This document shows, piece after piece, positions 12,256 to 52,414 of a DNA stretch of 64,000 bases; within the stretch, counting starts at the first letter, position 1; each line of letters begins with the position of its first letter. Made by a program: the position numbers and the translations under genes. The notes below the pieces were generated by a model that ran no database searches, was not told the origin of the DNA, and saw nothing but the letters and a program-made list of their open reading frames with translations. This stretch comes from an uncultured delta proteobacterium (lineage in GTDB: Bacteria; Desulfobacterota; Binatia; Binatales; Binataceae): assembly GCA_963724765.1 (NCBI GenBank), contig CAVRVY010000004.1:288001-352000 (forward strand), written 5' to 3'.

Positions 12256-12383
12256 GAGCGGCAATATATTGTCACTTCCCTGGTCTGTTTGGAGCCAGTT
12301 TCTCGTCACTAGCTAATCCCGCGCCGTCTGCGCCGCGCAAATCCGCTCTTATTTCTACCTAATTTCCGGGCACGCTATGTGCT
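12256..12383 (+). promoter_or_regulatory. Sigma54 promoter (GG 12369/GC 12381) with upstream CAATATATTG enhancer, module copy 1
   Basis: GGGCACGCTATGTGCT; palindrome at 12262-12271; conserved in copies 2 and 3. Confidence 0.75.
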
Positions 12384-12587: not shown

Positions 12588-12650
12588 TCAATAGTCAGTC
12601 GGCGCCGGTGTACTACCGCGAGCGATTACTCGTCGCGCGGATCGCGCCGA
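12588..12650 (+). ncRNA. Conserved structured 5' leader element, copy 1
   Basis: TCAATAGTCAGTCGG; outer stem tcggcgc/gcgccga; apical GATTACT hairpin. Confidence 0.5.
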
Positions 12651-12678: not shown

Positions 12679-14789
12679 ATGCGACGAGTCTTAGGCTTGG
12701 TCCCGGGTCCGATTCTGGTCGACGAAAGCGGACGTCACACGCGAGATATGCGGGCGCGCGCAACCCAGGCTCACGCGCTCCGGGCATACGCGCTCCGGGC
12801 ATACGCAAAGACGTGCCTGGCGAGCGCGGCGATGCTGATGACGGTTGGGCTCGGATGGGCGGTGGCCGCGCGCGCCCAGGCCAACATAACGCTCAGCAAC
12901 ACCGGCCTGACCGGCGCGATCGCCACCAATACGAACTGGTCGATTGCCAAAAGCGGGGGCGTCGCCAGCGGCACGGCGAGCTGGACGGTTGGGGTGACGA
13001 AGGTCTCCGTGAGCGATCAGATAATCGAGGTCGACGGCCAGGTCCGGATAAACAATACCGGCACGGGACCGGCCCCGCTCGGCAACATTATCGTCAATCT
13101 GCAGCGCCCCTGCGGTGCGGTATGGGTTTCGGCGGCGGCAGGCGTAGCCGACGCGACCTTCGGCCAGGCGGCAACTTACGGCAACTTTATCTCCACTGCG
13201 ACTTACGAGAACGCCACGCGCAACAGCCCGAGCTCGGCCTGCCGCGGACCGGGTAACTATGTGGTCACTACCACCGTCGACGGGCACGCAGTCAAGGAAG
13301 GCACGTTTTTCAGTACCGGCGCCTCGGGCAAGGTCGACTTCGTTAACGCGGCCGACAACTCGGTCTTCTCGATGGTGCCCGAAGTCCAACTGGCTGCCGG
13401 GGCATCGATCAGGCTCTTCTACACTGCGACCTTCGACAACACCATCCTGGGAATCGCGCCGGGAACCGAGCTGCGACCCGAGGTCATCGTCAGCGTGGCC
13501 GCCGCTCAGCAAACCGCCTTGAACGTGTCACGGCTCGTCGACGTCGACGACCAGGACGGGCCGGCCGGCGGAGACGACGCCGGATGGTCACAAAGCGCCG
13601 CGATACGGCAGTCGTTTAAGCCCAAACCAGCGCAGTGCAACCAGACCATCACGTTGAGCGACGCACGAAACAATAGCAATCCGGCGCTGACCGGAACCGC
13701 CACGATGACCAGCTTCACCAGCTTCAACGATACCGGGACGCTGACGATCGACGGCTCGTCGATGAGCGACGGGCAGACCAACACGCAGGACGTAAGCGCC
13801 GCGGTCAACGGCGGCGTCAGCGGCGGCACCATCACCAACTGCGCCGGCATCACCGGCCCCAACACGACCATCAAGCTTGTCGTGGGCAACTTCAGCAAGG
13901 TCTTCAGCGTATGCACCGGAGTAAACGATACCGCTTGCGATGAAGAGGACGTGCCCAGCAATGCGGGCCCGGCCACGCCTACTCCGGCACCGTCCCCGGT
14001 CGTGACGCCCACACCGGTTGTCACGCCCACTCCAGTCGTAACGCCCACTCCGGTTGTCACGCCCAGTCCAATCGTCACGCCCACTCCGGTCGTGACACCG
14101 ACGCCGACCGCCACGCCTACTGCTGTGGTACCGCCGTACAGCAAGAATGAGTTCTGCACCTACAGCGAGGCGCATTGGTCGCATACCTGCGGCGAATGCG
14201 ACGGCGGACGCTACGGCGGCGAAGAGCATAGCGCTGCGCAGAGCCTCAAGCACGGAGAGGATGATGACTGCGTCGGGGAGGGCAGTCAGGCCCATAACCT
14301 CTTGACCGAGAACTTCGACACCGTGTACGGCGCCAGCGGTGGCGTGCATGTAGGCCTCAGCTGCGCCAGCGATCAGTTCGGGATGACCTTCACCTCGGCG
14401 GCCGCGATCCAGAACTACTTGCCCGCGGGCGGACCGGCCGAAGTGCTCAACGCGTGTCTCGTCAACCCGTCAAGCTCGCACTCGGGCAATCTCGGCGGCG
14501 AAGTCCTGGCGCTGGAACTCAACGTCGACTTCAGCGCGGCCGGTATCACAGAGGGTACGGGTGGTCCGTTCGGTAACCTGAATCTGTGCGGCAGCGGCAC
14601 CTCGTTCGACGGCATGTCGATCGCGGAGATTCTCGCGGCCGCCAACAAGGCGCTGGGCAACGGCGGGATGCCCGCAGAGCTCGATCCAGACTCTCTGGCG
14701 ACCTGCTCCATCAGCTCAACAACTCGTTTGACGAATGCTATCCGCACGGTTTCGCCCAGAAGTACCTGACCGGCGGAGCTTGTCCGTAA
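12679..14789 (+). CDS. Secreted Cys-containing protein with Pro/Thr linker and uncharacterised C-terminal domain; apparent frameshift near 14697
   Basis: Signal peptide (…AARAQA), (VVTPTP)n linker; a more natural C-terminus GDLLHQLNNSFDEC…GGACP is in the shifted frame ending 14789 (unshifted ORF ends 14769). Confidence 0.75.
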
Positions 14790-14904: not shown

Positions 14905-16941
14905 TCAGCTGACCGCCGCGGCGGCTGACGATGACTGGCACAGCAGCGTCCGCGCGCAATAGGCAGCGGTTATCCGCCACACGGTTAGCGAAAATTGCTT
15001 GCGCAGCCGCTTGCCCGAAGCATCGATCACTCGAATCGTCGGATGCCAGGTGCCCTCCCTGGTTGCGACTCCCATGATAGCGCCGGCGGCCTGGTCGATC
15101 GAAAGGCCTGGCGGCAGGTAACCCAGGATCACGGCGATCGTATAGGGCGCGCGGCCACCGCTGATATCCAGCGAAGTATCGTAGATAACCGTGGTATGTG
15201 CGCTGGGTAAAATCGCACTGGCGCCAATCTTCAGCGGCGATGGCGCCGGGGTCGGCGTCGATGTAGGGGCCGCAGTGGGCGTCGCGGTCGGCTTGGGTGT
15301 AGGCGTCGCCGCAGGAGTGAGTGTAGCGGTCGGCATCGGTGTCGCGGCCGACGCGCCAGGGGTTATCGAGCCCCACCACGTACCCCACATATTGCTTTGA
15401 CCGGCGTACTCCTGGATGGTCCACATCGAGGTGTCGTCGACCGGATCGACCACGGTCGCGGTGAAGTCGCCCCATCGGTTCTCGCCGGTGCCGAAGTCCT
15501 TGAAGTAGGACGCCTCACCCGCCTTCAGGATCACTTCGCTTCCCATCGTGTTCGGAGGGTCGCTCGCCAGGTGTATCGAGTAGGCCGCGCTCGCATATAT
15601 CCCGGTCCCGAAATGTGTATAGCCGAGCATCATGTCGCCGTACTGGTTAACGGCCAGCGACGGGTAGGCGTAAAAGTTGGCGGCGCTGGGATCGTCGATG
15701 CGTCCGAACTGCTGCACCTGGCCAAACGCCGAGGCGCTCATATTGATCTGCCACCATTGCGCGGCAGTGCGAGTCGGAGTTCCAGTCGCGGGAAGGTAGA
15801 CGGTATGCGAGGCCCAGAGAGAGCCATTGCGATACACGCAGCTCTGGATCCGCCCGTCCTCGGTCTGGATGTTCTCGCTGGAGCCGAGTTGCGGAGCGAA
15901 ATTAGCGACCGGCGAGAACGCCTGCCAGGCCGACGGCCCGGTCGGATAGGCTACGCCGCTCGTCAGCACTTCGGACCCGACCGGGCCCGTTATGGTGTCG
16001 ACCCGGAGCTCGCCGGCACCCGAGCTGCTCTGCTCCAGCAGGTACATGGTCGAAAGATTGGGATCCAACGTAGTGGCCGGGACCTGAGTATAGCCACTGG
16101 TCGGTGTGAGCACGGTATATTTGCCCGTGCCGCCGGCGTACAGGTCTGCCTTGTCAAAAGCCCAAATCATCGAGTTGACGAAATTGTTGCCGGCGACGGT
16201 GAAGATGTTGGCCTGCACGACGATCCAGTTCTTATTGAATCCGAGGGTCGGATAATCGACCCAATTGACTGACGAACCAAGGTTTATCTTGTAGATATTC
16301 CAGCCGGCGGTGGGATCGCTGGTTTGCGAGACACCGATCAGGATGGCCGCGTTCGAGGACATCTCTCCGGCGGCGGATGAGAAGATCCAGCGTTGGGCAT
16401 ACGGATCGTAAAGGATATGCGCGTCGAATGACTCGGTCACGCCCAGAGCCGACCAGAAGGTCCAGTTGGTGATTGCGCTCAGAACGTTGCCCGACCTGTC
16501 CTGGATCACGACCTGGCTGTTGAGCGCTTCCATCAGATGATGGGGCCCGACCGCTCCCTCGGAGTCGGGCGGAATCACCGTGCCGTTGTCAGCCACCGCC
16601 AAGAAGCTGTTGACGGGCGGGAGCGATTGCACGGTCGAAACTGCGGGCGGCGGCGCTTCGCTCTCGGGCGCGGCAACCGCTTCCTCACTCTCTGTGGTGC
16701 TTTCGATTTGCGGTGCGAACGGGCGATGAATTTTACGATGCTCATTGAGCGGCATCGGACCAAGCGCCTCGTCACGAGCGACCCCCTTGAAGTTTATTGA
16801 GGCGCGCTGCGCCGCCTCGCCTGCCGTGCCGTTTACCTGGACCGGAGACGCCCCGGCGAGTGTTTGAACGGCGGCGACGCCTACAAGCGCGATAGCCGCC
16901 GAGAAAATAAATTGCCGAATTCGCCGCGTGGTCGATATCAC
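14905..16941 (-). CDS. Secreted protein: large beta-rich domain (PPD..AVGP…RWGD), Pro/Thr stalk, putative Ig (He_PIG) domain
   Basis: Signal peptide; GG.APY…LPPGLSID…G.I.G motif; paralog of 22166-24583. Confidence 0.8.
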   Translation of the reverse strand: MISTTRRIRQFIFSAAIALVGVAAVQTLAGASPVQVNGTAGEAAQRASINFKGVARDEALGPMPLNEHRKIHRPFAPQIESTTESEEAVAAPESEAPPPAVSTVQSLPPVNSFLAVADNGTVIPPDSEGAVGPHHLMEALNSQVVIQDRSGNVLSAITNWTFWSALGVTESFDAHILYDPYAQRWIFSSAAGEMSSNAAILIGVSQTSDPTAGWNIYKINLGSSVNWVDYPTLGFNKNWIVVQANIFTVAGNNFVNSMIWAFDKADLYAGGTGKYTVLTPTSGYTQVPATTLDPNLSTMYLLEQSSSGAGELRVDTITGPVGSEVLTSGVAYPTGPSAWQAFSPVANFAPQLGSSENIQTEDGRIQSCVYRNGSLWASHTVYLPATGTPTRTAAQWWQINMSASAFGQVQQFGRIDDPSAANFYAYPSLAVNQYGDMMLGYTHFGTGIYASAAYSIHLASDPPNTMGSEVILKAGEASYFKDFGTGENRWGDFTATVVDPVDDTSMWTIQEYAGQSNMWGTWWGSITPGASAATPMPTATLTPAATPTPKPTATPTAAPTSTPTPAPSPLKIGASAILPSAHTTVIYDTSLDISGGRAPYTIAVILGYLPPGLSIDQAAGAIMGVATREGTWHPTIRVIDASGKRLRKQFSLTVWRITAAYCARTLLCQSSSAAAAVS

Positions 16942-19062: not shown

Positions 19063-19108
19063 CGCCGGATCTCCTGATTCGCTCTAACAGCAAATGAGGT
19101 CATTGGAG

Positions 19109-20629
19109 ATGAAGCTTCCTTACCGTCGGCAGTTCTCTGGCCAGATTCTCATACTGGCAGCCATATCCATGGTCCTTTTGCTCGGCTTCACCGCGCTGGC
19201 GGTGGATATGGGTTACCTCTACTCCACGCGGCGGCGCATGCAGACAGCGGCCGACGCGGCGGCCGTGGCGGGAGCTACCGCGCTTCGCGACGGAGAGGAT
19301 TACACCAAGGCCGCCGATGACGTTAGTTCATTCAACGGCTTCGTCAACTCACAGAACAATGTAGCGGTGACGGTTAGCGAACCAACGCTGCCGTCGCCGT
19401 ATCCGAGCGATGTGACCTACGTCGAGGTCGACATCTCGCAGAACGTACCGACATTTTTCCTGCGCGTGCTGGGCTACAATTCCATGAAGGTGGCCGCGCG
19501 GGCGGTGAGCGGCGCCGTAGCCGGACCGGCCTGCATATACACACTTGCCCCGAGCGGTTCCGACACCTTCAGCTTAACCGGCAATGCCAACGTCACCGCC
19601 CAGTGCGGCCTAATCGACAATTCGAGTTCCTCATCCGGGCTTTCACTTACCGGCAACATCACACTGAAGGCCACGTCGATCGGGGTGGTCGGGAGCAGCT
19701 TTTCCAAGTCCGGCAATGTCACCATCTCGCCGCAGCCGGTCGAGAATCTCGCAGCGCTATCTGACCCGCTCGCGGGACGCGCCGCGAGCGCAGCGCCCAG
19801 CGCCGGCACCTGCACTCAGCAGACCGGCGCCTCCGGAAGCGAAAGCTGGAGTGGCAATATCGGCACGCTCACGGTCCCTGCCGGAGTATACAAGGACGGC
19901 GTCAGCATCAGCGGCAACGTCACCGCGGTAACCTTCTCCGCCGGCAACTATGGAAACACTGTCGACTTCAACGGCAACGGCGGCAACCTGACTTTCAATC
20001 CTGGCCAGTACCAGAATGGTGGCAGTGGCAACAGCATCACGCTGAGTGGAAATACCGCGACCACCTTCAATGCCGGAACGTACACGTTCTGCGGCGCGGT
20101 CGATATCACCGGCAACAGTAGTGTCACCCTGCAGCCGGGCACGTATTTTGGTGGAATCAGCATAACCGGCAACGCCAACGTGACCTTCAGTCCCGGCACC
20201 TATATCCTGGCGGGCGGCGGACTGACGGTTACCGGCAACTCCGCCTTGAAGGGAACCGGGGTCACCTTCTACAACACGAGCGCGACCGGCTATGCATACG
20301 CGCCGATCGATTTGACCGGCAATGAAACCGCAAATCTGAGTGCTCCCACCTCGGGGACCTTCGAGGGCTTCCTCTTCTTCCAGGATCCGTCGATCCCGGT
20401 CGGCTCATCCGGCATCACCGTAGTTGGCAACTCGTCGTCGACTTTCGATGGCATCGTCTACTCGCCCACCACCGCGATCACATACGTCGGCAACTCCAGC
20501 GGCTCCGGCTATACGATTCTGATCGGATATACCATCTCGGTGACCGGCAACTCTTCGTTTACCATCGGTAACAACTATTCTTCGCTGGCCGACGGCGCAC
20601 CGATAAAGTCGAGCGCACTCTATGAATAG
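19109..20629 (+). CDS. TadG-like pilus-associated protein with Gly/Asn beta-solenoid C-terminus
   Basis: GQ.LIL…LAVDMG…QTAADAAAVAGA Tad N-terminal motif; repeated (I/L)TGN. Confidence 0.85.
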   Translation: MKLPYRRQFSGQILILAAISMVLLLGFTALAVDMGYLYSTRRRMQTAADAAAVAGATALRDGEDYTKAADDVSSFNGFVNSQNNVAVTVSEPTLPSPYPSDVTYVEVDISQNVPTFFLRVLGYNSMKVAARAVSGAVAGPACIYTLAPSGSDTFSLTGNANVTAQCGLIDNSSSSSGLSLTGNITLKATSIGVVGSSFSKSGNVTISPQPVENLAALSDPLAGRAASAAPSAGTCTQQTGASGSESWSGNIGTLTVPAGVYKDGVSISGNVTAVTFSAGNYGNTVDFNGNGGNLTFNPGQYQNGGSGNSITLSGNTATTFNAGTYTFCGAVDITGNSSVTLQPGTYFGGISITGNANVTFSPGTYILAGGGLTVTGNSALKGTGVTFYNTSATGYAYAPIDLTGNETANLSAPTSGTFEGFLFFQDPSIPVGSSGITVVGNSSSTFDGIVYSPTTAITYVGNSSGSGYTILIGYTISVTGNSSFTIGNNYSSLADGAPIKSSALYE

Positions 20630-21107
20630 CCATCGCTCGAACGCCAAGACGCCTGTGCCGGGACGGCGGCGCTTTTGGGCCGCGCGTGGCCAGAGCTATG
20701 TCGAACTGGCTTTCGCGCTGCCTGTGCTCGCGCTCATTCTGGTGGTGGCAGCCGACTTCGGACGGCTCTTCTACGCCTATCTCGAGGTGATCAATGCCGC
20801 GCGGGCGGCGGCACAGTACGGATCGAATAGCGTCATCACCGCCGCCGACTCAACCGGGATGGTCGCGGCGGCCAAGCAGGACGGTATTAATGTTGCCAAT
20901 CTGACGGTCACCGCCAGCCAGTGCACGTGTGGAACCGCGACCGCATCCGTTCCCGCCTGTTCGTCGAATTACTGCACCAATGACCCGCAGGGGAACTATG
21001 TTGTGGTCAATACACAGGCTCTCTTCAACACCCTGGTAAAATACCCTGGGGTTCCTTCCTCGGTCACGCTGAAAAGCCAGGCCGTGATGCAGGTTCAACA
21101 ACAATGA
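20622..21107 (+). CDS. TadE/TadG-family pseudopilin
   Basis: RGQSYVELAFALPV…DFGR…NAARAAAQY. Confidence 0.88.
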   Translation: MNSHRSNAKTPVPGRRRFWAARGQSYVELAFALPVLALILVVAADFGRLFYAYLEVINAARAAAQYGSNSVITAADSTGMVAAAKQDGINVANLTVTASQCTCGTATASVPACSSNYCTNDPQGNYVVVNTQALFNTLVKYPGVPSSVTLKSQAVMQVQQQ

Positions 21108-21538
21108 AGCGACCGTTCATCTCTGCGCTGGCGAAGCATTCTTCAGGCGCGACGGCGGTGGAGTTTGCGTTAGGCAGCACGATCTTTCTCCTGCTGACGT
21201 TCGCGACCATCGAGTTGGCGATGGTGGTGTATTCGTACAACACCATCAGCCATGCCGCCCGCGAATGCGTGCGCTATGCGATCGTACATTCGCCGACCGG
21301 CCCGAATCCCGCGACCACCTCGCAGATCAAGAGCATCACGGTTGCTTATGCTGATCTGCCGGCGCCAAACCAGCTATTACCCGGTGATGTCGCGGTAACC
21401 TGGCCGGCCGATCCCAATCTGCCCTCCTCCGACGATGCGCAATGCACCGTCTCCCTGAATTACAGTCTGCGAATACCTTTTCTGCCGTCCAAGACCCTGC
21501 CCCTGACCGCGACCGCGCGGATGCTCGTTTCCCAGTAG
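21104..21538 (+). CDS. TadE-family pseudopilin
   Basis: SGATAVEFAL…AARECVRYA. Confidence 0.88.
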   Translation: MKRPFISALAKHSSGATAVEFALGSTIFLLLTFATIELAMVVYSYNTISHAARECVRYAIVHSPTGPNPATTSQIKSITVAYADLPAPNQLLPGDVAVTWPADPNLPSSDDAQCTVSLNYSLRIPFLPSKTLPLTATARMLVSQ

Positions 21539-22165: not shown

Positions 22166-24583
22166 TTACGAACCGATCGATATCTGAAACGTCCGGCTCG
22201 CCGATGCGTGACCCCGGTCAGTGACGTAGACCGTGAAGCTCGAGACCCCCGCGAAGCCCGGCGTCCCGCTGATCTCGCCGCTAAAGGTATTGAGCGCGAG
22301 TCCGCGCGGCAGCGCACCCGCACTGACGTAGACGAGATAGGGCGGCGTACCGCCGCTCAACTCCAGCGAGGCGTGATAGAAGATGCCGACGCTGCCGCCG
22401 GAAAGCGTCGCGGCGCCGATCGTCAGCGTCGGAGTGGGCGTCGCGGTCGGGACCGGTGACGGCGTGGGATTGGGTGTAGGCGAAGACGTCGGCGCCGGGG
22501 TCGGCGTTGGAGTCGGAGTCGGCGATGGTGATGGCGTTGGGCTTGACGAAGAAACCGGTGTCGGTGTGGGCGTGGGGGTGGAGGTCGGCGTCGGTGATGG
22601 CGTTGGAGTCTTCGAAGGCGTTGGAGTCGGAGTCGGGGTTGCCGTGGGCGTTGGAGCTGGGGTCGGCGACGGTGACGGCGTGGGCGTAGGCGAAGCGGTG
22701 GCGGTAGGCGTTGGCGAAGCGGTGGTGGTCGGTGTCGCCGTGGGCGTTGCACTGGGTGTAGGGCTAGGGGTCGGCGTCGCTCCTCCTCCTATAGATAGCT
22801 CGGCCCACCAGGTGCCCCAATCGTTGTCGGTCGCTGCATACTCCTGGAGCGTCCATAAGCTGAGATCGTCGATCGGATCCACCATCGTGGTGCTAAAATC
22901 GCCCCATCGATTGTCTCCGGTGCCGAAGTCCTTGAAATAAGGCGCCTGGCCCGCCTTGACCACGGTGCTTGGGGCGCGCAATGTACTGGGCGCGTCAGTA
23001 CCCATCCGCATCGAGAAGCTGGCGCCCGCGTACTGCGCCGCCGAAAACTGAGCGTACCCGACCATCGCGTCGTTTTCCGAATTGACGCCGATCGAGGGGT
23101 ACGCGAAAAACTGTTGCGCAGTCGGGTCGTCGATCCGCCCAAGCTGCTGGATTCCGCCCAAGTCGCCCGCTGTTGTGTCGATCTGCCACCACTGCACCGA
23201 GCATCGATTGGGCGTACCGCTGGCGGGCAGGAAAATGGTCTGCGCGGTCCACAGCGAGCCGTTTCGATAGGCCGTCCAATCCAACCGATCGTCGTCGGTA
23301 TCGATGTCTTCGGTCGATCCCAGTTGCGGTGCGAAGTTGATCGTAGGCTCTACCGCCTGCCACGGCTGCGGTGAAGTCGGCAAGGCGACGCCGGTAGTGA
23401 GGACCTCGGAGCCGACCGCGCCGGTGATCGTACTCATCCGCAGCAGGCCGTTGGCCGAGCTCCACGACTCCAGAAGATAGAGCGTCGTGAGATTGGGATC
23501 ATAAGTTAGCGCCGGATTCATCGAGAAACCGCCGGTATCGTCCTGCATCAATGTAAAGAGCCCGGAACCACCCGCGTAGAGGTCCGCCTTGTCGAAAGCA
23601 TAGATGTTCTCATACTCGAAGAAAGTGCCCTGGATAGTGAACAGGTTGATCCCGACCACGATCCAGTTTTTGTTGAACCCAACGATGGGAAAGTCGCCCC
23701 ATAGCTGGCCCGTAGCATCGACCGGCACACGGTAGAGATTCCAGCCCGCGGTCGGGTCACTGTTCTGCGAGACGCCAATCAGGACCGCGGAGCCTGAAGT
23801 CTGCGGGTCACCCGCGGTGATGATAATCCATCGCTGACCGTACGGATCGTATACCACTCGCGGATCGGTGATGGCGCCGACGCCCAGGCTGGACCAGAAA
23901 CTGAGCAGGCTGGCGGTGCTTATCGGCGTACCCGTGCGGGTCTGAATTTCGATCTGACTATTGAGCGCCAGGACCAGATTGTCCGGTCCCACGGCACCGT
24001 CGGCGTCGGGCGGAATCGCGGTGTTATTGTCGCCGAGTCCCGCAAACCCGCTGAGCGTTTCGTCCGTCAGGTTTTTGGCAGGCGTGAGGATCGCCGGCTT
24101 TTTCGGCTGCACCAGCGGCACTTCAACGAGGGCCGGAGTCGCAACAAATGGATTGCCTTGCGGGCGTACGCCGAGATGACGGCGCGCCGGCATAAGGATA
24201 CCGCGCGCTTCGTCACGGGCGAGCGCCCTGAAGTTTATCGTGACATGAACGGAAGCGTGGTCGGAGCGTCCGGCGATCCGTCGCGCGACGGGAAACGCCT
24301 GGCGTGACGCAACCGCTCCCGAAGCGGCAGCCGCTCCTGAGGTGACAGGAGCCGCGGAATATGCGTTGGAATTGCCACCAGGAGTACTCTCGGCGCTGGG
24401 CTCGTTTGCAGCGGGGGTGTTTGCTGAGCTTGCCGTCGTGCCCGTCGCGAGACTTGTCTCAAAATTTCTCTCGAGACTTGCCGCGGCCCATGGCCGGGCG
24501 ACAACGAGAGCCGTCCATCCCGTTATCAGCAGAACCATCAGCCGCACAACGGTCGCAGACCGCTTGCGGATAGGTTTTGTCAA
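22166..24583 (-). CDS. Secreted protein paralogous to 14905-16941, long Pro/Thr stalk and He_PIG Ig domain
   Basis: Shared motifs [40 protein letters not shown]. Confidence 0.82.
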
Positions 24584-33688: not shown

Positions 33689-35152
33689 ATGAGACTTCCG
33701 GCGCTTAATCTTAAAGCCAAGCTGATGGCACTGATGGTGGTGCTGCTGGGGTTGACGCTCGGCGCCGAGCTGATGGTCAGCCTCAACACCCAAAACCGCA
33801 TCGTGGAGGCGACCCAGGACAACGTCAAGGAACTCGCAAGCGCGATCCAGATCAGCGTGCAGGAGCTGACCTCGGTCGGCACGTTCGATCGCGATCGCCT
33901 GCAAAACTACGTCAACTCGCTGCACAACAACGGACTCGAAGTCTCGATTGCCTCGAGCAAGGACCTGATCATCAACAGCTCCAACCCGGCGCTGATCGGC
34001 GAGGCGATCAACCGCGGCGCGGTCCACGTCGTGGCGGCGCAAAACGCAACGCGCGGCGGCGACCCGCTCTCAGTGCCGGCCTTCACCGTCGGCCCGGCCG
34101 GCGAGCAGACCGTCTACCTGATCCCGGTCGAAGTTGAAGACCACCTGCTCGGCTACGTCCAGGTGGTGGCTGACTTCGCAGATTTTGCGCGGCCGCTGGA
34201 GGAGCATCGCATCCACCTGTTGACGGTGGCCCTGGCGATCTTCGCGATCGGGCTGGTGTTCTCCTACGTGCTGGCCGATCGCTACGTCGAACCGATCCAC
34301 GCGGTCGCCGCCGCCGCACAGAACATCGCCGCGCGCGGCCTCGAACCGGTGCCAGAGGCGCACCGGCGCGACGAGATCGGGCTGCTCACGCGCAGCTTCA
34401 ACGAGATGGTCGACCAGTTGCGCCGCGCGCGCGAGCGCGAGGCCGAACTCAACCGGCTGGAGCGTTTCACCGCGCTCGGCCAGCTCGCCGGCGCGTTGGC
34501 GCACGAGATCAAGAATCCGCTGAATTTCATCAGCCTCGCGATCGACCAGCTACGCGCCCGCTACGCGCCGCAACTGCAAAACGACCAGGATAATTATCGC
34601 CGCCAGCTGGCAATCATGAAGGACGAGGTCCATCGCCTCTCCGAGCTGATCCAGAGCTTCCTCAACTACGGCCGCCCGATCGAGATCCATCCCGCACCCA
34701 CCGACGTGCGCGCACTGGTCGACAACGTGCTGGAGCTCTCGGACTCCAAGCTGCGCAGCCAATCGATTCACGCACTCAAGCGAGGCGCCGAGGCGCCCGT
34801 GGTACTCAACGTCGACGCGGAGAAGCTTCATGCCTGTTTCATCAACGTAGTGGCGAACGCGATTCAGGCGATGCCCGAGGGCGGAGAACTCAGCGTCGCG
34901 TTCAAGCGCGACAGCGACAACGAGGTGATAACCTTCTCTGACACTGGCGCGGGCATCGACCCCGAAGTCGCCAGCCACGTCTTCGAGCCGTTCTTCACCA
35001 CCAAGCGCGAAGGTATCGGCCTCGGCCTGTTCTTCTCGCGTGCGATCGTCGAGCGCCACGGCGGCACGATCACGATCGGCTCCAACCCGGCCGGACGCGG
35101 CACCACGGTGACTTTCATCCTGCCGCTCGGCGCACTAGGTAGACATACATGA
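33689..35152 (+). CDS. HAMP-domain sensor histidine kinase
   Basis: Two TM helices, HAMP, AHEIKNPL, FEPFFTTK..GIGLGL. Confidence 0.95.
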   Translation: MRLPALNLKAKLMALMVVLLGLTLGAELMVSLNTQNRIVEATQDNVKELASAIQISVQELTSVGTFDRDRLQNYVNSLHNNGLEVSIASSKDLIINSSNPALIGEAINRGAVHVVAAQNATRGGDPLSVPAFTVGPAGEQTVYLIPVEVEDHLLGYVQVVADFADFARPLEEHRIHLLTVALAIFAIGLVFSYVLADRYVEPIHAVAAAAQNIAARGLEPVPEAHRRDEIGLLTRSFNEMVDQLRRAREREAELNRLERFTALGQLAGALAHEIKNPLNFISLAIDQLRARYAPQLQNDQDNYRRQLAIMKDEVHRLSELIQSFLNYGRPIEIHPAPTDVRALVDNVLELSDSKLRSQSIHALKRGAEAPVVLNVDAEKLHACFINVVANAIQAMPEGGELSVAFKRDSDNEVITFSDTGAGIDPEVASHVFEPFFTTKREGIGLGLFFSRAIVERHGGTITIGSNPAGRGTTVTFILPLGALGRHT

Positions 35153-36570
35153 GCCAACCGTCGGTACTGGTGGTCGAGGACAACGACCTGGAGCGGCAAG
35201 TAACCGTCGAGACGCTGCGCGAGGAAGGCTTCCTGGTCGACGAAGCGCCCAATGGCAAGCGCGCGATGGAGCAGCTCGCGCTGGGCAGCTTCGACGTCGT
35301 GCTGACGGACCTGATGATGCCCGGGATGACCGGCGAGGAGTTGCTCGCCGCCGTGCGCCAGGCCTATCCGGGCAGCCAGGTCGTGCTGCTGACCGCGCAC
35401 GGCACTATCGAGAGCGCGGTCAAGGCGACCAAGAGCGGCGCCTTCGAATATCTGACCAAACCGACCGACCGTGAGAAGCTGGTGATGACGGTCGGCAAGG
35501 CGGCCGAGTTCGCGAGCCTCACGCAGGAGAACATCCTGTTGCGCACGCGGCTTGAAGGCAAATTCCAGGTCGAGGGCATCATCGGGCAGCATCCCGCGAT
35601 CGAGGACGTCATCCGCGTGGTGCGCAAGGTCGCGCCATCGTATTCGACGGTGCTGATCCAGGGCGAGAGCGGCACCGGCAAGGAGGTCATCGCGCGCGCA
35701 ATCCACAAGCTGTCGCCGCGCGGGACACGCCCCTTTGTGGCGATCAACTGCTCGGCGATTCCCGACAGCCTGATCGAAAACGAACTGTTCGGCCACGAGC
35801 GCGGAGCCTTTACCGGAGCCAACGAGCGCAAGATCGGGCTCATCGAAAGCGCCGACAAGTCGACGCTCTTCCTCGACGAGATCGCCGACCTCAACATCGG
35901 CCTGCAGGCCAAAATTCTGCGCGTGCTTCAGGAGCGCGAGTTGCGTCGCGTGGGCAGCAACGAATCCATCCGGGTCGACGTGCGCCTGGTCGCCGCCACC
36001 AACCGCGACCTGTCCGAAGAGGTCGCCCAGGGGCGCTTTCGCGAGGACCTCTACTACCGCATCAACGTCGTCACCATCACCCTGCCGCCGCTGCGCGATC
36101 GCCGCTCGGACATCCCGTTGCTGGCGGAAAACGCGCTCAAGAACCGTTTCGCCCACCTCGCGCAGAACCGGGTCAAGGAGATCAGCCGCGAGGCGATGGA
36201 GGTGCTGCTCGACTATTCGTGGCCGGGCAACGTGCGCCAGCTCGAATCAGCGATCGAACGCGCCCTGCTCCTGTGCGAGGGCGAGCGCATCATGCCCAAG
36301 GACCTGCCGCAGGAAGTCCTGGCGCGCAAGATGCCCGCCCGCGCCGCCGAGCGCGCGCGCGTAGAGCGCTTCGAGATGCCCGCCGAGGGAATCAATTTCG
36401 AGAATCTCGAGCGCGACCTTATTCTGCAAGCGATGGAACGCGCGGAGTGGGTGATCGCCAAGGCGGCCAAGATGCTCGGCATGAGCTATCGCACGCTGCA
36501 GTACCGGCTGGACAAGTTCGGGATCAAGAAACCCGACGGACGCTCGCAGCCAGCCGACATCAAAGCTTGA
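35149..36570 (+). CDS. Sigma54-dependent response regulator (NtrC/AtoC/PilR family)
   Basis: Receiver domain, [24 protein letters not shown], Fis-type HTH. Confidence 0.96.
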
Positions 36571-44944: not shown

Positions 44945-45042
44945 CAGCGCCAATATATTGTCACTCCCCTAGCCAATCCATTTCCTCTTCTCCGCGCAGA
45001 TCTTAGTTATTTCAATCTCATTTCTCGGGCACACAACGTGCA
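44945..45042 (+). promoter_or_regulatory. Sigma54 promoter (GG 45028/GC 45040) with CAATATATTG enhancer, module copy 2
   Basis: GGGCACACAACGTGCA; palindrome 44951-44960. Confidence 0.75.
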
Positions 45043-45119: not shown

Positions 45120-45197
45120 TCAATAGTCAGTCGGGGCCGACGCGCTCGCGATGATTACTAATCGCGGGTATCGCGCGCTCAGCCATCGGGCCCGACG
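45120..45197 (+). ncRNA. Conserved structured 5' leader element, copy 2
   Basis: TCAATAGTCAGTCGG; outer stem gtcggggccga/tcgggcccgac; cgcgat-GATTACTA-atcgcg. Confidence 0.5.
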
Positions 45198-45255: not shown

Positions 45256-47123
45256 ATGCGCAAGGGCAAACTCAACAGAATATGGTTCATGGCGTTGCCC
45301 ATGTTCGTTTTTATGGTCTTCATGACGGCGTGCAGCGGCGGCCATAATGGAAATGAAGGACCGCATCCATCGCCCCCAACTGCCACCGTCATTCCAACTG
45401 CCACCGTCATCCCGACTGCGACTGTCGCTCCGACTGCCACCGCCACCGCTACTGGCACCGCAACTGCCACCCCCACCGCGACCCCAACCCCGGTGGCACC
45501 CACGGTGATTTCGGTCGACCCTCCCATCGTAGGCTGTGGGGGGCAGGGGATGCCTGTCAATCGGAAAGTCACCGCGACCTTCAGTGAAGCGATGAAGCTC
45601 TCAACCATCACCGAATCAACCTTCACGGTGACTGGGCCTGGCCTGACTCCCGTTGCCGGAACTGTTACCTATGATGCGACCAACCACATCGCGATCTTCG
45701 CACCACCTGGCACTTTCGCAGCCGGCACAGAATTTACTGCGACGATTACAACCGGGGCTCAGAGTCTGGCAGGCGCTCCGTGGCGGCCAACTTCGTGTGG
45801 ACCTTCACAACCGGTGCGAGCTCTGACACGACCGATCCAACGGTGACCTCCACTAACCCCGCCAATCTTGCCGTCGATGTGGCCACCAATCAGAAGATCA
45901 CCGCAACCTTCAACGAAGGGATGAATTCTTCAACCCTCACCGCCGCGACCTTTACTTTGACCGGACCTGGCGCAACACCCATTCCAGGCACGGTGACCTA
46001 CACTACCATTGGTACAAGTGCGACGTTTAAGCCGAGCAGCGCTCTCGCATCCAATACTCTGTTTACGGCGAAGATTACCACGAGCGTCAAGGGTCTCGTC
46101 GGAAATCCGTTGGCAAGCGCGTTTACCTGGAGCTTTACCACCGGTGCGATCCCCGACAGCACCGCACCCACAGTGAGCTCCACGACCCCTACCGATGGCG
46201 CCACGGGTGTGTCCCTCAGCGCTGCAGCCAACGCAACGTTCAGCGAGGCGATGGACCCTGCAACCATCACCACCGCGACGTTTGCGGTTACTGGGCCTGA
46301 CACGACTCCCGTAACAGGAAAAGTCTCTTATGATGTGTCGTCCCAGATCGCGACCTTTACTCCTGCAAGCGCTCTCGCAGCCAGCACGACATTTACCGCC
46401 ACGATTACAACCGGAGGCAAAGACCTGGCAGGCAATGCACTGACGAGTGACTTTGTATGGAGCTTTACCACCGGTTCAACAGCGGGTCCGGCACCGATAG
46501 ACCTCGGGGCAGCGAGTAGTTTCGCGGTTCTGGCTCAAGCCACAGTCACCAACGCCGGCCCGACTGTGCTTGATGGAGATCTTGGATTGAATCCCGGGGG
46601 CTCGGTGACCGGATTTCCACCGGGAACAGTGAACGGGACAATTCAAATTGACAATGCTCCTGCAATCGCGGGCATTGCCTCTCTGATGACCGCGTACAAC
46701 ACCGGGATCTTGCTACCAGCAGGAACCGCAGTGTCGGGCGATATTGGCGGGCAAGTCCTTCCCCCCGGCCTCTACACGGCTCCGACATCACTGTTCATAA
46801 CGTCGGGGGATCTCACTCTCGACGCCCATGGCGACGCGAATGCAATCTGGATCTTCCAGATCGGGTCCACCCTAATAACCACCACCGACGTCGGCAATGT
46901 TATACTGGCCAACGGCGCGCAAGCTTCCAATGTCTTTTGGCTGGTCGGCAGTTCGGCGACGATTGGCATCGGAACTACGTTCCAGGGAACCATCCTGGCT
47001 AATACGTCAATTACGGTGACGACCGGCGCAACGCTGAACGGCAGAGCGTTGGCAGGTGCCGTCGCTTCGAGTGGCGCGGTCACCTTGGACACCAACAGTT
47101 TCACGCTGCCCGTCTGTCATTGA
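45256..47123 (+). CDS. Lipoprotein with Pro/Thr stalk, three Big_5 (SbsA-like Ig) domains and C-terminal ice-binding-like DUF3494 domain; frameshift near 45780
   Basis: Lipobox-like MTAC; ATFSEAM/FVW.FTT repeats; [40 protein letters not shown]; ORFs 45256-45846 and 45780-47123 join as AGAP(L)AANFVW. Confidence 0.85.
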
Positions 47124-47364: not shown

Positions 47365-47490
47365 CCAGCGGCAATATATTGTCACTGCCCGATAGGTTTG
47401 CGGCCGGCTTTTAGTCACTAGCCAGTCCGTTTCCTCTTCGCCGCGCAAATCGAACTTATTTCACGTCGTCTCCTGGGCACGCAACGTGCT
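47365..47490 (+). promoter_or_regulatory. Sigma54 promoter (GG 47476/GC 47488) with CAATATATTG enhancer, module copy 3
   Basis: GGGCACGCAACGTGCT; palindrome 47372-47381. Confidence 0.78.
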
Positions 47491-47560: not shown

Positions 47561-47642
47561 TCAATAATCAGTCGGGGCCCGCGCGATCGCGATGATGACT
47601 CATCGCACGCATCGCGCGTTCAACTACCTGGTCCGCGGCGAC
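47561..47642 (+). ncRNA. Conserved structured 5' leader element, copy 3
   Basis: TCAATAATCAGTCGG; cgcgcgat…gcgatga-TGAC-tcatcgc…atcgcgcg. Confidence 0.5.
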
Positions 47643-47688
47643 GCGCCCGTCGCACGCGTGGCCATGCGGTTTGCAAGGGCAGGAACCC

Positions 47689-50082
47689 ATGTCATCAAAT
47701 GCGGAGCGAAGCACGCGGATATGCAAGAGCAAACTTCTCCAGGCGTGGTCCATGGCCTTGCTGATATCCGTCTTTATGCCCTTCGTTGCCGCTTGTGGCA
47801 AAAGTAGCGAACGCGCAGGGCCCACTCCACCGCTCCCAACCGTTACTGCCACCCCGATCACTCCAACTGCCACCGCTACTCCAACCGCAACTGCCTCACC
47901 CACTGTCACCCCAACCCCGGTTCCGAGTCGTACGCCAACGCCTACGCCAATTCCGACGCTGACTCCGACCCCAACTCCAACTCCGACGCCAACGCGGACA
48001 CCGACGCCGACGCCAATTCCGATAACAACTTCAACACCAACGCCAACACCGACACCGACTCCAACTTCAACTCCAGCCCCGACTCCAACACCAATTCCGA
48101 CCCCGACTCCGACGCCAGTCCTGACCCCGACCCCGACCGCCACCCCAACACCCGCCTCGCCTACCGTGACTTCAACGGTCCCGGCTGAGGCTGCCTCCGG
48201 AGTGCCGGTCAGCAGCGCCGTCTCCGCGAGCTTCAGTACGGCGATGGATGCCGCAACCCTCGACGCAACAACCTTTACGGTGACAGGACCCGGCGGAGTT
48301 GGAGTAGCGGGAACCGTCGCCTATGACGCGCCAACCAACACTGCGACCTTTACGCCGTCGAGCAGTCTGGCGCCCAACGTCACCTTCACGGCCACGATTA
48401 CCACCGGAGCCGAGGACGCCGCACACGACGCGCTGGCGAGCGACTTTGTTTGGAGCTTCACGACCCTTGCGCCCACGGTGACATTTACGACTCCAGCCAA
48501 CGGCGCCACAGGTGTGCCGCTCAACCAGAACGTCACCGCCACCTTTAGCGAGGCCATGGACCAGACCACCATCAACACGACCACCTTTACGCTGACAGGA
48601 CCCGACGCCAGCCCAGTCAGCGGCAACGTGAGTTACGTTGCGAACGGCTCGGCAGCGATCTTTGCGCCAACAGATGCGCTCGCTGGCAGCACCACGTACA
48701 CGGCCACGATTACAACCGGCGCCACCGACACGACGACCAATCCGCTTGTGACCAGCTTCGTATGGAGCTTTACTACCGGCGCGGCTCCGGTAGCTATTCA
48801 TCCGGACGTGACTTCAGAGGCACCACCCGTTGACGGATCCGTACTTGTACCGATCAACACCCGGCTCACCGCAACGTTTAGCGAGGCGATGGAGCCGGCA
48901 ACTATCGACGCAACAACCTTTACCGTGCAAGGACCCGGCATAACGCCGGTTTCAGGCGCCGTGAGCTATGCTGACGGAGGCGCGACCGCGACCTTCGCCC
49001 CAGCAGGGAATCTCGCCGACAGCACCACGTATACTGCCACGATTACAACCGGCGCCACCGACACGGCAGGGAATGCGCTGTTAAATGACTTCGTATGGAC
49101 TTTTACAACCGGCACCGCTTCAGACACGATCATCCCGACCGTGCTCTCCACGAACCCGGCTGCCGCCGAAACCAGTGTGTGCCTCAACCAAAGCGTGAAT
49201 GCCACTTTCAGTAAGGCGATGGACCCGACGACCATCAACAGCGCAAACTTCACAGTGACAGGACCGGGCGTCTCTCTCGTGACCGGAACGGTTTCCTACG
49301 ATCCGGTAAATTTCATCGCGACCTTTACTCCACAGAGCGAGCTCGCTGCGAATACCCAATTTGTTGCGATGATTGCCACCGGGGTCAAAGACACGGCCGG
49401 CAATGCACTGGCTAGTAACTTCGTATGGAGCTTTACAACCGGAGCAACATCGACACCGTCATGTCAGGCGACGGTGCCTCTTGGAGCGGCGGGCACATTC
49501 GCGGTTCTGGCCGGCTCGACGGCTACCAATAGTGGCCTTACTATGGTTATCGGGGATATTGGTGTGAGCCCTGGAACGGCGGTGACCGGGTTCCCGCCCG
49601 GAATACAGAACGGGACGATGCACGATGGCGATGCGGTCGCCGCCCAGGCCAAAGTGGACCTTGCCACGGCGATTAGCCTGGCCACGGACCGTTCCAATCC
49701 TGGGCTCTTGCCGATCGAGATAGGCGGACTCACTTACACGCCTGGCGTCTATATGGCCGGAGCCGCACTTGGCATAACCACAGGGAACCTCACTCTCGAC
49801 GCGCAGGGCGATGCGAACGCCGTCTTTATTTTTCAGATAGGGTCGTCACTTACGACGTCAACATCAAACCAGATTATCCTGGCCGGCGGCGCCAAGCCCG
49901 CCAACATCTTTTGGCTAGTGGGCAGTTCGGCGACTCTTGGAGGAGGCTCCATCTTCCAGGGGAATATACTGTCGGCGGTGTCGATCACCGTAAATTCGGG
50001 TGCAACGATTAACGGCAGACTACTGGCACAGAGCGGCGCGATCACCCTATTGACTAATGCCGTCACAATACCCGGCCCGTAG
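47689..50082 (+). CDS. Lipoprotein with long Pro/Thr stalk, four Big_5 Ig domains and ice-binding-like DUF3494 domain
   Basis: Lipobox VAAC; (TP)n; four ATFS.AM…FVWSFTT repeats; DUF3494 motifs. Confidence 0.9.
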
Positions 50083-51682: not shown

Positions 51683-52414
51683 ATGCGCACTAAGAGAATC
51701 TCAGAAGTCCGGGACCTGAAGAAACTCAAAAACATGGCCTGGCTTTCGGCGCAACGGGTCGACAGATTCGCCCGTGCGCTGAACGTGACCACAGTCGAAG
51801 AACGCAAGGTCATTTTCGATGAGAACAATGTTCCCGAGTCCGTCCATATCCTGCTCTCCGGCGTCGCGGGCATCACTTGCCGAAACCGCAAGGGGCAGCG
51901 CAGATTGGTGATCATTGTGGCGCCCGGAATGATTCCCGGATTCCCGGGTCCGGTGAACGGAATCAACTATGACTTCCGCTGCGAGGCGCTCACCAGCTGC
52001 CAGATCGGAAGAATCGATTTGGAGACGTTCATACAAATCTCCCTCGGCATCGAATCGATCGATTTCAAGCGAATGGCGTTCAACTATCTTGGGCGATGGA
52101 ACCTGGTCCAATTGCGTTGCTCGAATTTTATGGGCTGTACCCTCAAGGAACGTCTGGCGCTGGCGTTAATCGAACTCAGCGAAGATTTCGGAATCCGCGA
52201 TAGCGAGGGCTTACGGCTCGGCCTTTCGACGCGCCATAGCGATTTGGCCGAATTGGTGGGAGCCTCGCGGCCGCGGGTCACGGAGCATCTGAGCCAGTTC
52301 GAGAAGGATCGCTTGATCGCACGAAAGGATCATCAGCTGATTGTGCAACGTAGCCGAATCGAGAGCTTTCTGTCTCAGGCGCAAGCCGCCCTGAGCGGCC
52401 GCGGACCCGAATAA
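51683..52414 (+). CDS. Crp/Fnr family transcriptional regulator
   Basis: cNMP-like N-terminus; ERLA..L..L..FG, DLAELVGASRPRVTEHL HTH. Confidence 0.88.
   Translation: MRTKRISEVRDLKKLKNMAWLSAQRVDRFARALNVTTVEERKVIFDENNVPESVHILLSGVAGITCRNRKGQRRLVIIVAPGMIPGFPGPVNGINYDFRCEALTSCQIGRIDLETFIQISLGIESIDFKRMAFNYLGRWNLVQLRCSNFMGCTLKERLALALIELSEDFGIRDSEGLRLGLSTRHSDLAELVGASRPRVTEHLSQFEKDRLIARKDHQLIVQRSRIESFLSQAQAALSGRGPE

Follow-up and report, generated by a model that had tools for sequence, protein, structure and literature searches.

Several kinds of short element are known from bacterial leaders and promoters. Orphan cis-regulatory leader motifs are candidate structured RNAs, held in Rfam, that lie upstream of particular gene families. 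Small pseudoknot riboswitches of the preQ1 or SAM-II type form a second group, and 5′ stabiliser hairpins and RNase E processing sites in messenger RNA (mRNA) leaders (ompA and papA types) a third. At the sigma-54 promoter glnAp2 of Escherichia coli, low-affinity NtrC ‘governor’ sites lie between enhancer and promoter, and extragenic palindromes of the repetitive extragenic palindromic/bacterial interspersed mosaic element (REP/BIME) type occur in tens to hundreds of copies per genome. Here we analysed 64,000 nucleotides (nt) of DNA from an uncultured Binatia bacterium (the window; positions 288001-352000 of contig C4 of assembly G000, which comprises 5.4 Mb in four contigs with 62% GC) and describe an element of two boxes that occurs in it three times, always on the + strand, as copies c1 (12588), c2 (45120) and c3 (47561). 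It is real, selected and specific to one genus, lies in the predicted leaders of a sigma-54 regulon that comprises three promoters and serves surface proteins, and is probably regulatory.

The element is like orphan leader motifs in that it is short, has hairpin potential, lies in the 5′ leader of a specific gene set, is limited to narrow taxa and has no known ligand or partner. Unlike the curated motifs, it lacks an Rfam match and covariation support and is found in one genus only. It belongs to no known RNA family and nothing marks it as a new kind of device.

Box 1 has the sequence TCAATA(G/A)TCAGTCGG, or (U)CAAUAG-YN-AG-YYGG as RNA, and CAATAG..AG.CG is its invariant core across leaders. 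For the 15-mer TCAATARTCAGTCGG, the window contains 3 matches at ≤2 mismatches where 0.11 were expected, a count reached in 0 of 100 shuffles. These copies are also the only matches at 0 or 1 mismatch in the whole genome, which has 18 at ≤2 mismatches and 169 at ≤3. Box 1 is identical or nearly identical in c1, c2 and c3, in metagenome contigs and in the orthologues of G135, G138, G136, G125/G131, G137, G133, G134 and G129 (G labels denote the genomes compared and L labels the loci read, including metagenome contigs; L041 is a locus of G131). Between lineages it is identical at 15/15 positions, and the neighbouring spacers there are saturated with change. The spacer that separates the promoter motif from box 1 measures about 30–210 nt among leaders and cannot be aligned, and box 1 lies 87–110 nt before the start codon in intact c1-type leaders. 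Some spacers contain short tandem repeats, with TTCMGGAAG-like units in L132 (G125) and GGAAGCRGTTG-like units in L271 and L272.

Box 2, with the consensus GATGA-TTAC-TCATCGCGCG (GAUGA-UUAC-UCAUCGCGCG as RNA), is palindromic and forms the tip of a GC-rich hairpin; in many leaders a second ATCGCGC comes after it. The symmetry of box 2 is that of a 5-4-5 palindrome, GATGA-N4-TCATC, extended by CGCG. The apical sequence is GATTACT in c1 and c2 and GATGACT in c3, and the stem of c2 (GTCGGGGCCGA/TCGGGCCCGAC) has one mismatch. The centre of box 2 lies 36–37.5 nt after the start of box 1 in c2, c3, the G138 group, G135, G125, L269, L286 and L278, between which the intervening sequence differs; the distance is 40, 48–50 or more nt in the leaders of c1, G137, G133, G134 and G129. 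In c1-type leaders, the element ends just 5′ of a conserved sequence, CGGCGGCAACGAGCAGGGAG, that includes the Shine–Dalgarno (SD) sequence. No related site came up when the whole genome was searched for palindromes like box 2 or for ATCGCGC-N2-ATCGCGC repeats.

Each copy lies 85–219 nt downstream of a sigma-54-type motif, GGCAC(G/A)-N4-GTGC. The sigma-54 consensus is TGGCAC-N5-TTGC-like, with the GG of the -24 region and the GC of the -12 region ten bases apart; all three motifs fit this spacing, and their -12 region is GTGC, not TTGC. A palindrome, G[GC]CAATATATTGTCAC, starts 79–109 nt before each of the three motifs, and exact copies of this 16-bp sequence occur only at these promoters in the 5.4-Mb genome, which points to a predicted regulon of three sigma-54 promoters that the palindrome defines. 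The genome encodes rpoN (Sigma54_DBD, E = 4e-60). Between the c1 unit and the c2/c3 units sits a gene pair for a sensor histidine kinase and an NtrC-family activator (the latter at 35149-36570), which is the candidate activator of the three promoters. An orthologue of this activator is present in 17/17 genomes of the genus and lies on the same contig as the c1-type leader, 14–29 kb away, in 10/11 genomes, the exception being the fragmented G123. Scans of the three leaders found no sigma-70-like promoter and, by consensus, no terminator-like site; the single terminator-like match in the three scanned regions is upstream of the c3 promoter, over the c3 upstream palindrome, and UUUU occurs near the stem end in c2 only. 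Because it is downstream of sigma-54-type motifs and upstream of genes, the element is predicted to lie in the transcribed leader, behind a presumed transcription start. In c1 the hairpin is only 29 nt from the ATG, and the element must therefore be transcribed with the gene.

We compared the genus (G000 and 16 other same-genus genomes) with its family. The promoter block was found in 12 of the 16 other same-genus genomes, and outside the genus only as short, weak matches; a promoter-anchored scan of metagenome contigs yielded 19 loci. A covariance model made from 20 leaders and run over 151 family genomes gave strong matches (E ≤5.6e-6) only in G000 and 9/16 of the other same-genus genomes. 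No match outside the genus was strong (best E = 0.0025), and the eight outside matches that we read were unlike the leaders, several of them resembling coding sequence. The element is restricted to one genus. In c1-type leaders, both boxes are present in G000, G125, G129, G131, G133, G134, G135, G137, G138 and several metagenome contigs; G123 has box 2 only, G136 has box 1 only, after a deletion that is absent from its close relative L286, and G130 has no box. In c2/c3-type leaders, both boxes are present in G000 (twice) and L278, the first gene of G131 (L041) has a degenerate version, and neither box is found in L270, L285 or the second gene of G131. As it is present in most leaders and lost in several orthologues, the element is conserved but evolutionarily dispensable. 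Tallies for the promoter block, the covariance model and the family-wide 15-mer (below) include genomes flagged as unpublished (G017, G018, G102, G157 and G162), and our conclusions are independent of these. Public runs listed none of RNA, and contigs of four DNA runs showed no leader variants, with low cover at the leaders; neither result bears on expression. A literature search limited to Binatota/Binatia and to DUF3494 with sigma-54 found no published account of the element.

Beyond the leaders, three word searches were made. The 15-mer was found at ≤1 mismatch in 86/165 family genomes, clearly more than a reversed-word control. The 30 loci read were mostly a few orthologous loci, each counted in many genomes, and many were intragenic or sat at the end of a gene with TAG or TCA as its stop codon; for these reasons we did not count the excess towards a general element. 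A scan of genome contigs with the exact 14-mer gave at least 119 matches in unrelated phyla and was uninformative, because by our estimate this is the chance level for that word length and collection size. The core TAGTCAGTC occurs 23 times genome-wide, versus 17 for the reversed word, and its TAG closes a real-looking open reading frame (ORF) in 4/23 cases compared with 4.4% of all TAG, which is a weak signal.

The sequence-only reading of the window, made before this analysis, had placed TCAATA(G/A)TCAGTCGG at three positions, downstream of each promoter and past a non-conserved spacer. The mismatch scan of window and genome agrees with the positions, the element falls in the predicted transcribed leader of three paralogous promoter–gene units, and the spacer is as variable as had been described, with box 1 kept across the genus. 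The outer stems and the apical GATTACT/GATGACT that it quoted are likewise present in the three copies. It had also judged by eye that the element matches neither the c-di-GMP-I/II nor the c-di-AMP riboswitches, which are curated in Rfam, and a covariance search with every family of Rfam release 15 gave 0 matches in the window at gathering scores. Scans of the three leaders by E-value retrieved only models of C/D small nucleolar RNAs or microRNAs, at 9.8–19.5 bits against gathering scores of 40–75; the best was GlsR7 (19.5 bits against 75), the others reached ≤12.2 bits against ≥40, and c1 had none.

The reading that we tentatively prefer, at somewhat less than even confidence, is that of a genus-specific cis-regulatory leader element that acts at the RNA level, as a site of docking, processing or stabilisation. 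Box 1 would stay largely single-stranded beside the hairpin, and the two together would be where a protein, a small RNA or an RNase docks or where the transcript is processed; the stability or translation of the three surface-protein mRNAs would in this way be tuned post-transcriptionally. Both the action on RNA and the existence of a trans-acting partner are what we infer rather than observe. We do not consider it to be a metabolite-sensing aptamer. In its predicted form, the arrangement is like that of ompA- and papA-type leaders in having an A/U-containing single-stranded word directly 5′ of a stable stem–loop in the long leader of an envelope-protein mRNA; it differs from those stabilisers in that several orthologues have a weak hairpin or none.

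About half of the copies have hairpin potential. Scored against dinucleotide shuffles, the minimum free energies of c1, c2 and c3 have z values of -1.0, -3.3 and -1.7 with the ends first chosen and of -2.05, -3.8 and -1.0 with slightly different ends, c2 being the best-folding copy of G000. The orthologues in G134 (-3.7), G125 (-3.2) and G137 (-2.5) also fold beyond shuffles. Some apical substitutions preserve pairing: c1 shows C-G and G-U in place of the U-A and A-U of the others, L273 has a G-U, L269 two G-U, and L278, once re-registered by eye, G-C and C-G. In the 3′ half of box 1, most varying positions are U or C facing a G, C-A cells do not occur, and the two varying pairs show only the types UG, UA and CG, in 18/18 cells each.

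Several results weigh against the RNA-level reading. The fold is no better than shuffles in 5/12 scored copies (G135 +1.0, G138 -0.4, G123 -0.3, c3 -1.0 and G133 -1.3; the z values of G129, whose sequence is cut short, and of G136, which has no hairpin, are not comparable and lie outside the 12). RNAalifold on a MAFFT alignment of 10 orthologues returned 0 consensus pairs. For helices drawn by hand on a 20-sequence alignment (a basal helix P1, in which GUCAGUCG of box 1 pairs with CGRCGRC, and an apical helix P3), 83.6% of cells are paired compared with 83.8 +/- 0.7% in column shuffles, the covariation score is 0.157 compared with 0.151 (a value at least equal to it is reached in 173/500 shuffles), and both partners have changed in 2 pairs where 1.7 are expected. 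Pairing of the 3′ half of box 1 with the sequence downstream is no stronger than with shuffled partners, z being ≤-1.7 in 4/20 leaders and positive in 7/20. Folding gives the sense strand no advantage over the antisense strand (the sense strand is the more stable in 11/20; mean difference +0.28 kcal/mol), and in the G135/G138/L271/L272/L274 group the antisense strand folds better by 2.5–8.9 kcal/mol. The long apical stem has two uncompensated changes in L277, L279 and L282. Finally, the element has been lost with the gene retained in G130, G136 (box 2), the second c2-type gene of G131, L270 and L285.

Helix P1 was also considered as pairing of the 3′ half of box 1 with CGGCGGC before the SD; it can form in most copies, no better than in shuffles. 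The sequence-only reading had described stems that differ in sequence and keep their pairing, and had named the lack of significant covariation among homologues as a result that would refute it. The stems are there, but conserved pairing is not supported: RNAalifold finds none and covariation equals that of shuffles. No significant covariation was detected, in a test of low power because all homologues come from one genus, and the structured-RNA reading is accordingly ‘not shown’ rather than ‘excluded’.

It is possible, but we consider it less likely than an RNA-level site, that boxes 1 and 2 are double-stranded DNA sites for a transcription factor, either a roadblock repressor or the sigma-54 activator at secondary low-affinity sites, with the hairpin a palindromic by-product in GC-rich DNA. 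Inverted DNA half-sites had also been named as an alternative in the sequence-only reading. What is conserved is indeed sequence rather than pairing, folding shows no sense/antisense asymmetry, and box 2 is a palindrome extended by CGCG. CAATA and GTCA(C/G)T are common to box 1 and the upstream palindrome CAATATATTGTCACT, and 6/13 regulatory regions have a block like box 1 at 12/15 positions (TCACTAGCCAGTCCG), 61–64 nt ahead of the promoter motif and not part of the predicted transcript. The block scores 12.1 bits, in a genome with 96 sites of ≥12 bits (10.8 Mb, both strands). Words of the class [AT][AGT]GT[CA]A[CG]T occur two or three times, always on the + strand, in 5/13 regions, against 0.10 per kb per strand in the genome. 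In the G138 group, box 2 (ATAGTCACTC) is a 9/10 direct repeat of box 1 rather than its complement, and genes for a Crp/Fnr-type regulator (51683-52414) and the NtrC-type activator lie in the window. Like the governor sites of NtrC, box 1 and the block before the promoter share words with the upstream palindrome and could limit expression; unlike them, box 1 is in the predicted transcribed leader, and the likeness was noticed post hoc, as were the other resemblances. Other observations speak against an operator. Box 1 keeps its distance from the start codon and not from the promoter, and helical phasing between the boxes is not kept because their spacing, mostly 36–37.5 bp, varies as given above. 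The upstream look-alike is degenerate (<8 bits) in c1, c2, G138 and G135, where box 1 is perfect, and changes in the upstream palindrome do not go along with those in box 1. Both arms of box 2 have changed with pairing kept in c1 and, as re-registered by eye, in L278, which a protein site does not need.

That the element has no present function, being the relic of a promoter–leader cassette duplicated among three genes or a decaying palindromic insertion like a REP or a miniature inverted-repeat transposable element (MITE), is improbable. The whole promoter cassette is common to the three G000 copies, the boxes are lost or degenerate in G130, G136, G123, L041 (G131), L270 and L285, and a terminator-like hairpin at another site of the genome (G000:C4:1258672) has arms that consist of the core TAGTCAGTC. 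A relic would not be expected to keep box 1 at 15/15 positions between lineages next to spacers saturated with change, and the family-wide excess of the 15-mer is, as described, largely that of a few, often genic, orthologous loci. Like REP/BIME sequences, the element is a GC-rich imperfect palindrome after a short conserved tag containing TAG, with its core word found at gene ends and in a terminator-like hairpin; unlike them or MITEs, it has 3 copies at ≤1 mismatch in 5.4 Mb, far below their numbers, and is tied to one promoter type.

We regard as still less probable a ligand- or temperature-sensing RNA in which a pseudoknot between UAGUCA and the apical loop UGAUUA acts as a small aptamer controlling the downstream gene. 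The sequence-only reading had proposed this pairing, UAGUCA with (U/C)GAUUA. It is possible in the window (6/6 in c2, 5/6 in c1 and in c3) and at 6/6 in G125/G131 and L269, but is not conserved among orthologues, being absent from the G138/L271/L272/L274, G135 and G137/G133/G134 groups; in the first of these box 2 repeats box 1 directly. The best duplex of box 1 in L269 is one of 9 bp with the 5′ side of box 2 (z = -3.0), and the region of the start codon in c1 is complementary to the 3′ arm of box 2 (z = -3.4), which would permit a switch of the 1:2 / 2:3 / 3:4 type in that copy. Start-codon sequestration by box 2 was considered in 15 leaders and is significant in c1 only: in 14/15 leaders the pairing is no better than in shuffles, and z is positive in 10/15. 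Neither a terminator nor a conserved SD-sequestering helix was found, the accessibility of SD and AUG is inconsistent among leaders, the leaders lack a junction of several helices that holds conserved unpaired bases, and the element is lost in several orthologues. The 5′ strand of some copies could pair with the hairpin loop, as in preQ1 and SAM-II riboswitches; unlike in these, the complementarity is not conserved and there is neither an Rfam match nor an expression platform. The leaders thus have no aptamer fold backed by covariation (at the low power noted above) and no expression platform, and the proposal of a new riboswitch controlling adhesin expression is not supported. Taken as a whole, the sequence-only reading is partly supported: conservation in the genus, location in the predicted leader and the lack of an Rfam match agree with it, and support is missing for a conserved structure, covariation, a strand bias, a conserved pseudoknot and an expression platform. 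We give equally little weight to a new small RNA switch in which UAGUCA would pair with UGAUUA, or a dedicated protein or small RNA would displace that pairing, and the 3′ arm of box 2, thus released, could cover the translation start as c1 allows. If such a switch did exist, sigma-54-transcribed ice-binding-like surface lipoproteins would be under a second, post-transcriptional signal, for example cold or a nucleotide messenger.

An upstream ORF, with a leader peptide that ends at the TAG of box 1 (TAA in c3, where others have TAG) or a frame F-N-S-Q-S that runs through it, is scarcely credible: c2 and c3 do share the frame (F/L)N(S/N)QSGP(T/A)RSR*, with 2/3 differences synonymous, but the TAG-ending frame has no ATG, GTG or TTG start in c1 and G138, the F-N-S-Q-S frame has an ATG 6 codons before box 1 in c2 and none in c1, c3 and G138, and neither its length nor its end is conserved.

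Table 1. Positions in the window of the three promoter–leader–gene units and of the candidate regulators
Feature	Position	Strand	Remark
c1 upstream palindrome, GGCAATATATTGTCAC	12260-12275	+	presumed enhancer (upstream activating sequence) for a sigma-54 activator
c1 sigma-54-type -24/-12 motif, GGCACGCTATGTGC	12369-12382	+	predicted promoter
c1 box 1, TCAATAGTCAGTCGG	12588-12602	+	mismatch scan
c1 GC-rich hairpin, outer stem TCGGCGC/GCGCCGA	12599-12650	+	box 2 CGCGAGCGATTACTCGTCGC at 12617-12636
c1 gene	12679-14769	+	696 amino acids, N-terminal hydrophobic segment
Sensor histidine kinase (HAMP/HisKA) and NtrC-family sigma-54 activator (response regulator)	33689-36570	+	Pfam, NCBIfam; candidate activator
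c2 upstream palindrome, GCCAATATATTGTCAC	44949-44964	+	16-mer genome search
c2 sigma-54-type motif, GGCACACAACGTGC	45028-45041	+	predicted promoter
c2 box 1, TCAATAGTCAGTCGG	45120-45134	+	start of the finding
c2 hairpin, GTCGGGGCCGA ... TCGGGCCCGAC	45130-45197	+	box 2 CGCGATGATTACTAATCGC at 45147-45165
c2 gene	45256-47123	+	lipoprotein, Big_5 repeats and ice-binding-like domain (PF11999)
c3 upstream palindrome, GGCAATATATTGTCAC	47370-47385	+	16-mer genome search
c3 block, TCACTAGCCAGTCCG	47415-47429	+	61 nt before promoter motif, 12/15 positions like box 1
c3 sigma-54-type motif, GGCACGCAACGTGC	47476-47489	+	predicted promoter
c3 box 1, TCAATAATCAGTCGG	47561-47575	+	mismatch scan
c3 hairpin region, GTCG..GGGCC/GGTCC..CGAC	47571-47641	+	box 2 CGCGATGATGACTCATCGC at 47588-47606
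c3 gene	47671-50082	+	lipoprotein, 4 Big_5 repeats and ice-binding-like domain (PF11999)

The three genes are listed in Table 1. The product of the c1 gene has no Pfam, NCBIfam or PDB sequence match and is predicted to be an uncharacterised secreted protein. The c2 gene consists of two overlapping ORFs in different frames (45256-45846 and 45780-47123), which may reflect a frameshift or an assembly error in its repeat-rich part; public contigs do not span the junction. For c3, the ATG at 47689 is the likely start. Between the c1 unit and the activator are Tad/Flp-pilus-type genes (Tad, TadE, TadE; 19094-21538) and, on the minus strand, large proteins without any family match (14905-16941 and 22166-24583).

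Words related to box 1 are also found outside the window. At G000:C4:1212184-1212226, GCATTAGTCAGTCGG occurs twice, 28 nt apart, and the first TAG ends an open frame of 926 codons; a variant, TCATTAGTCAGTCGG, is present in five other same-genus genomes and five times in G044. At G000:C4:1258672-1258718, directly after the stop of a 249-codon ORF, TAGTCAGTC and GACTGACTA make up the two sides of a hairpin that, with the T-rich run after it, looks like a terminator built from the same word. CAATATATAGTCAGTCG and ATAGTCAGTCG lie 21 nt apart at G000:C4:760511-760590, a stretch of low GC content at third codon positions in which ATAGTCG stands directly before the ATG of a small signal-peptide gene and may be another use of the word. 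In L023 (G035, from another genus of the family), at about 1470–1515, the space that separates two co-directional genes is taken up by three head-to-tail GACTGACTA words, 11–12 nt apart, of which the first overlaps the upstream stop codon and the last abuts the next ATG.

The main value of these results is as a worked case, in which ‘compensated’ stems that are visible by eye in DNA of 62% GC can fail controls for covariation, shuffling and strand asymmetry. At present, the element is one more lineage-restricted leader motif whose partner is not known, and it offers a defined 15-nt word and a palindrome for mutation in reporters. If it is functional, the cell-surface proteins of this sigma-54 regulon, which is compact and specific to one genus of an uncultured soil, peat and sediment lineage, would be under a second layer of control.

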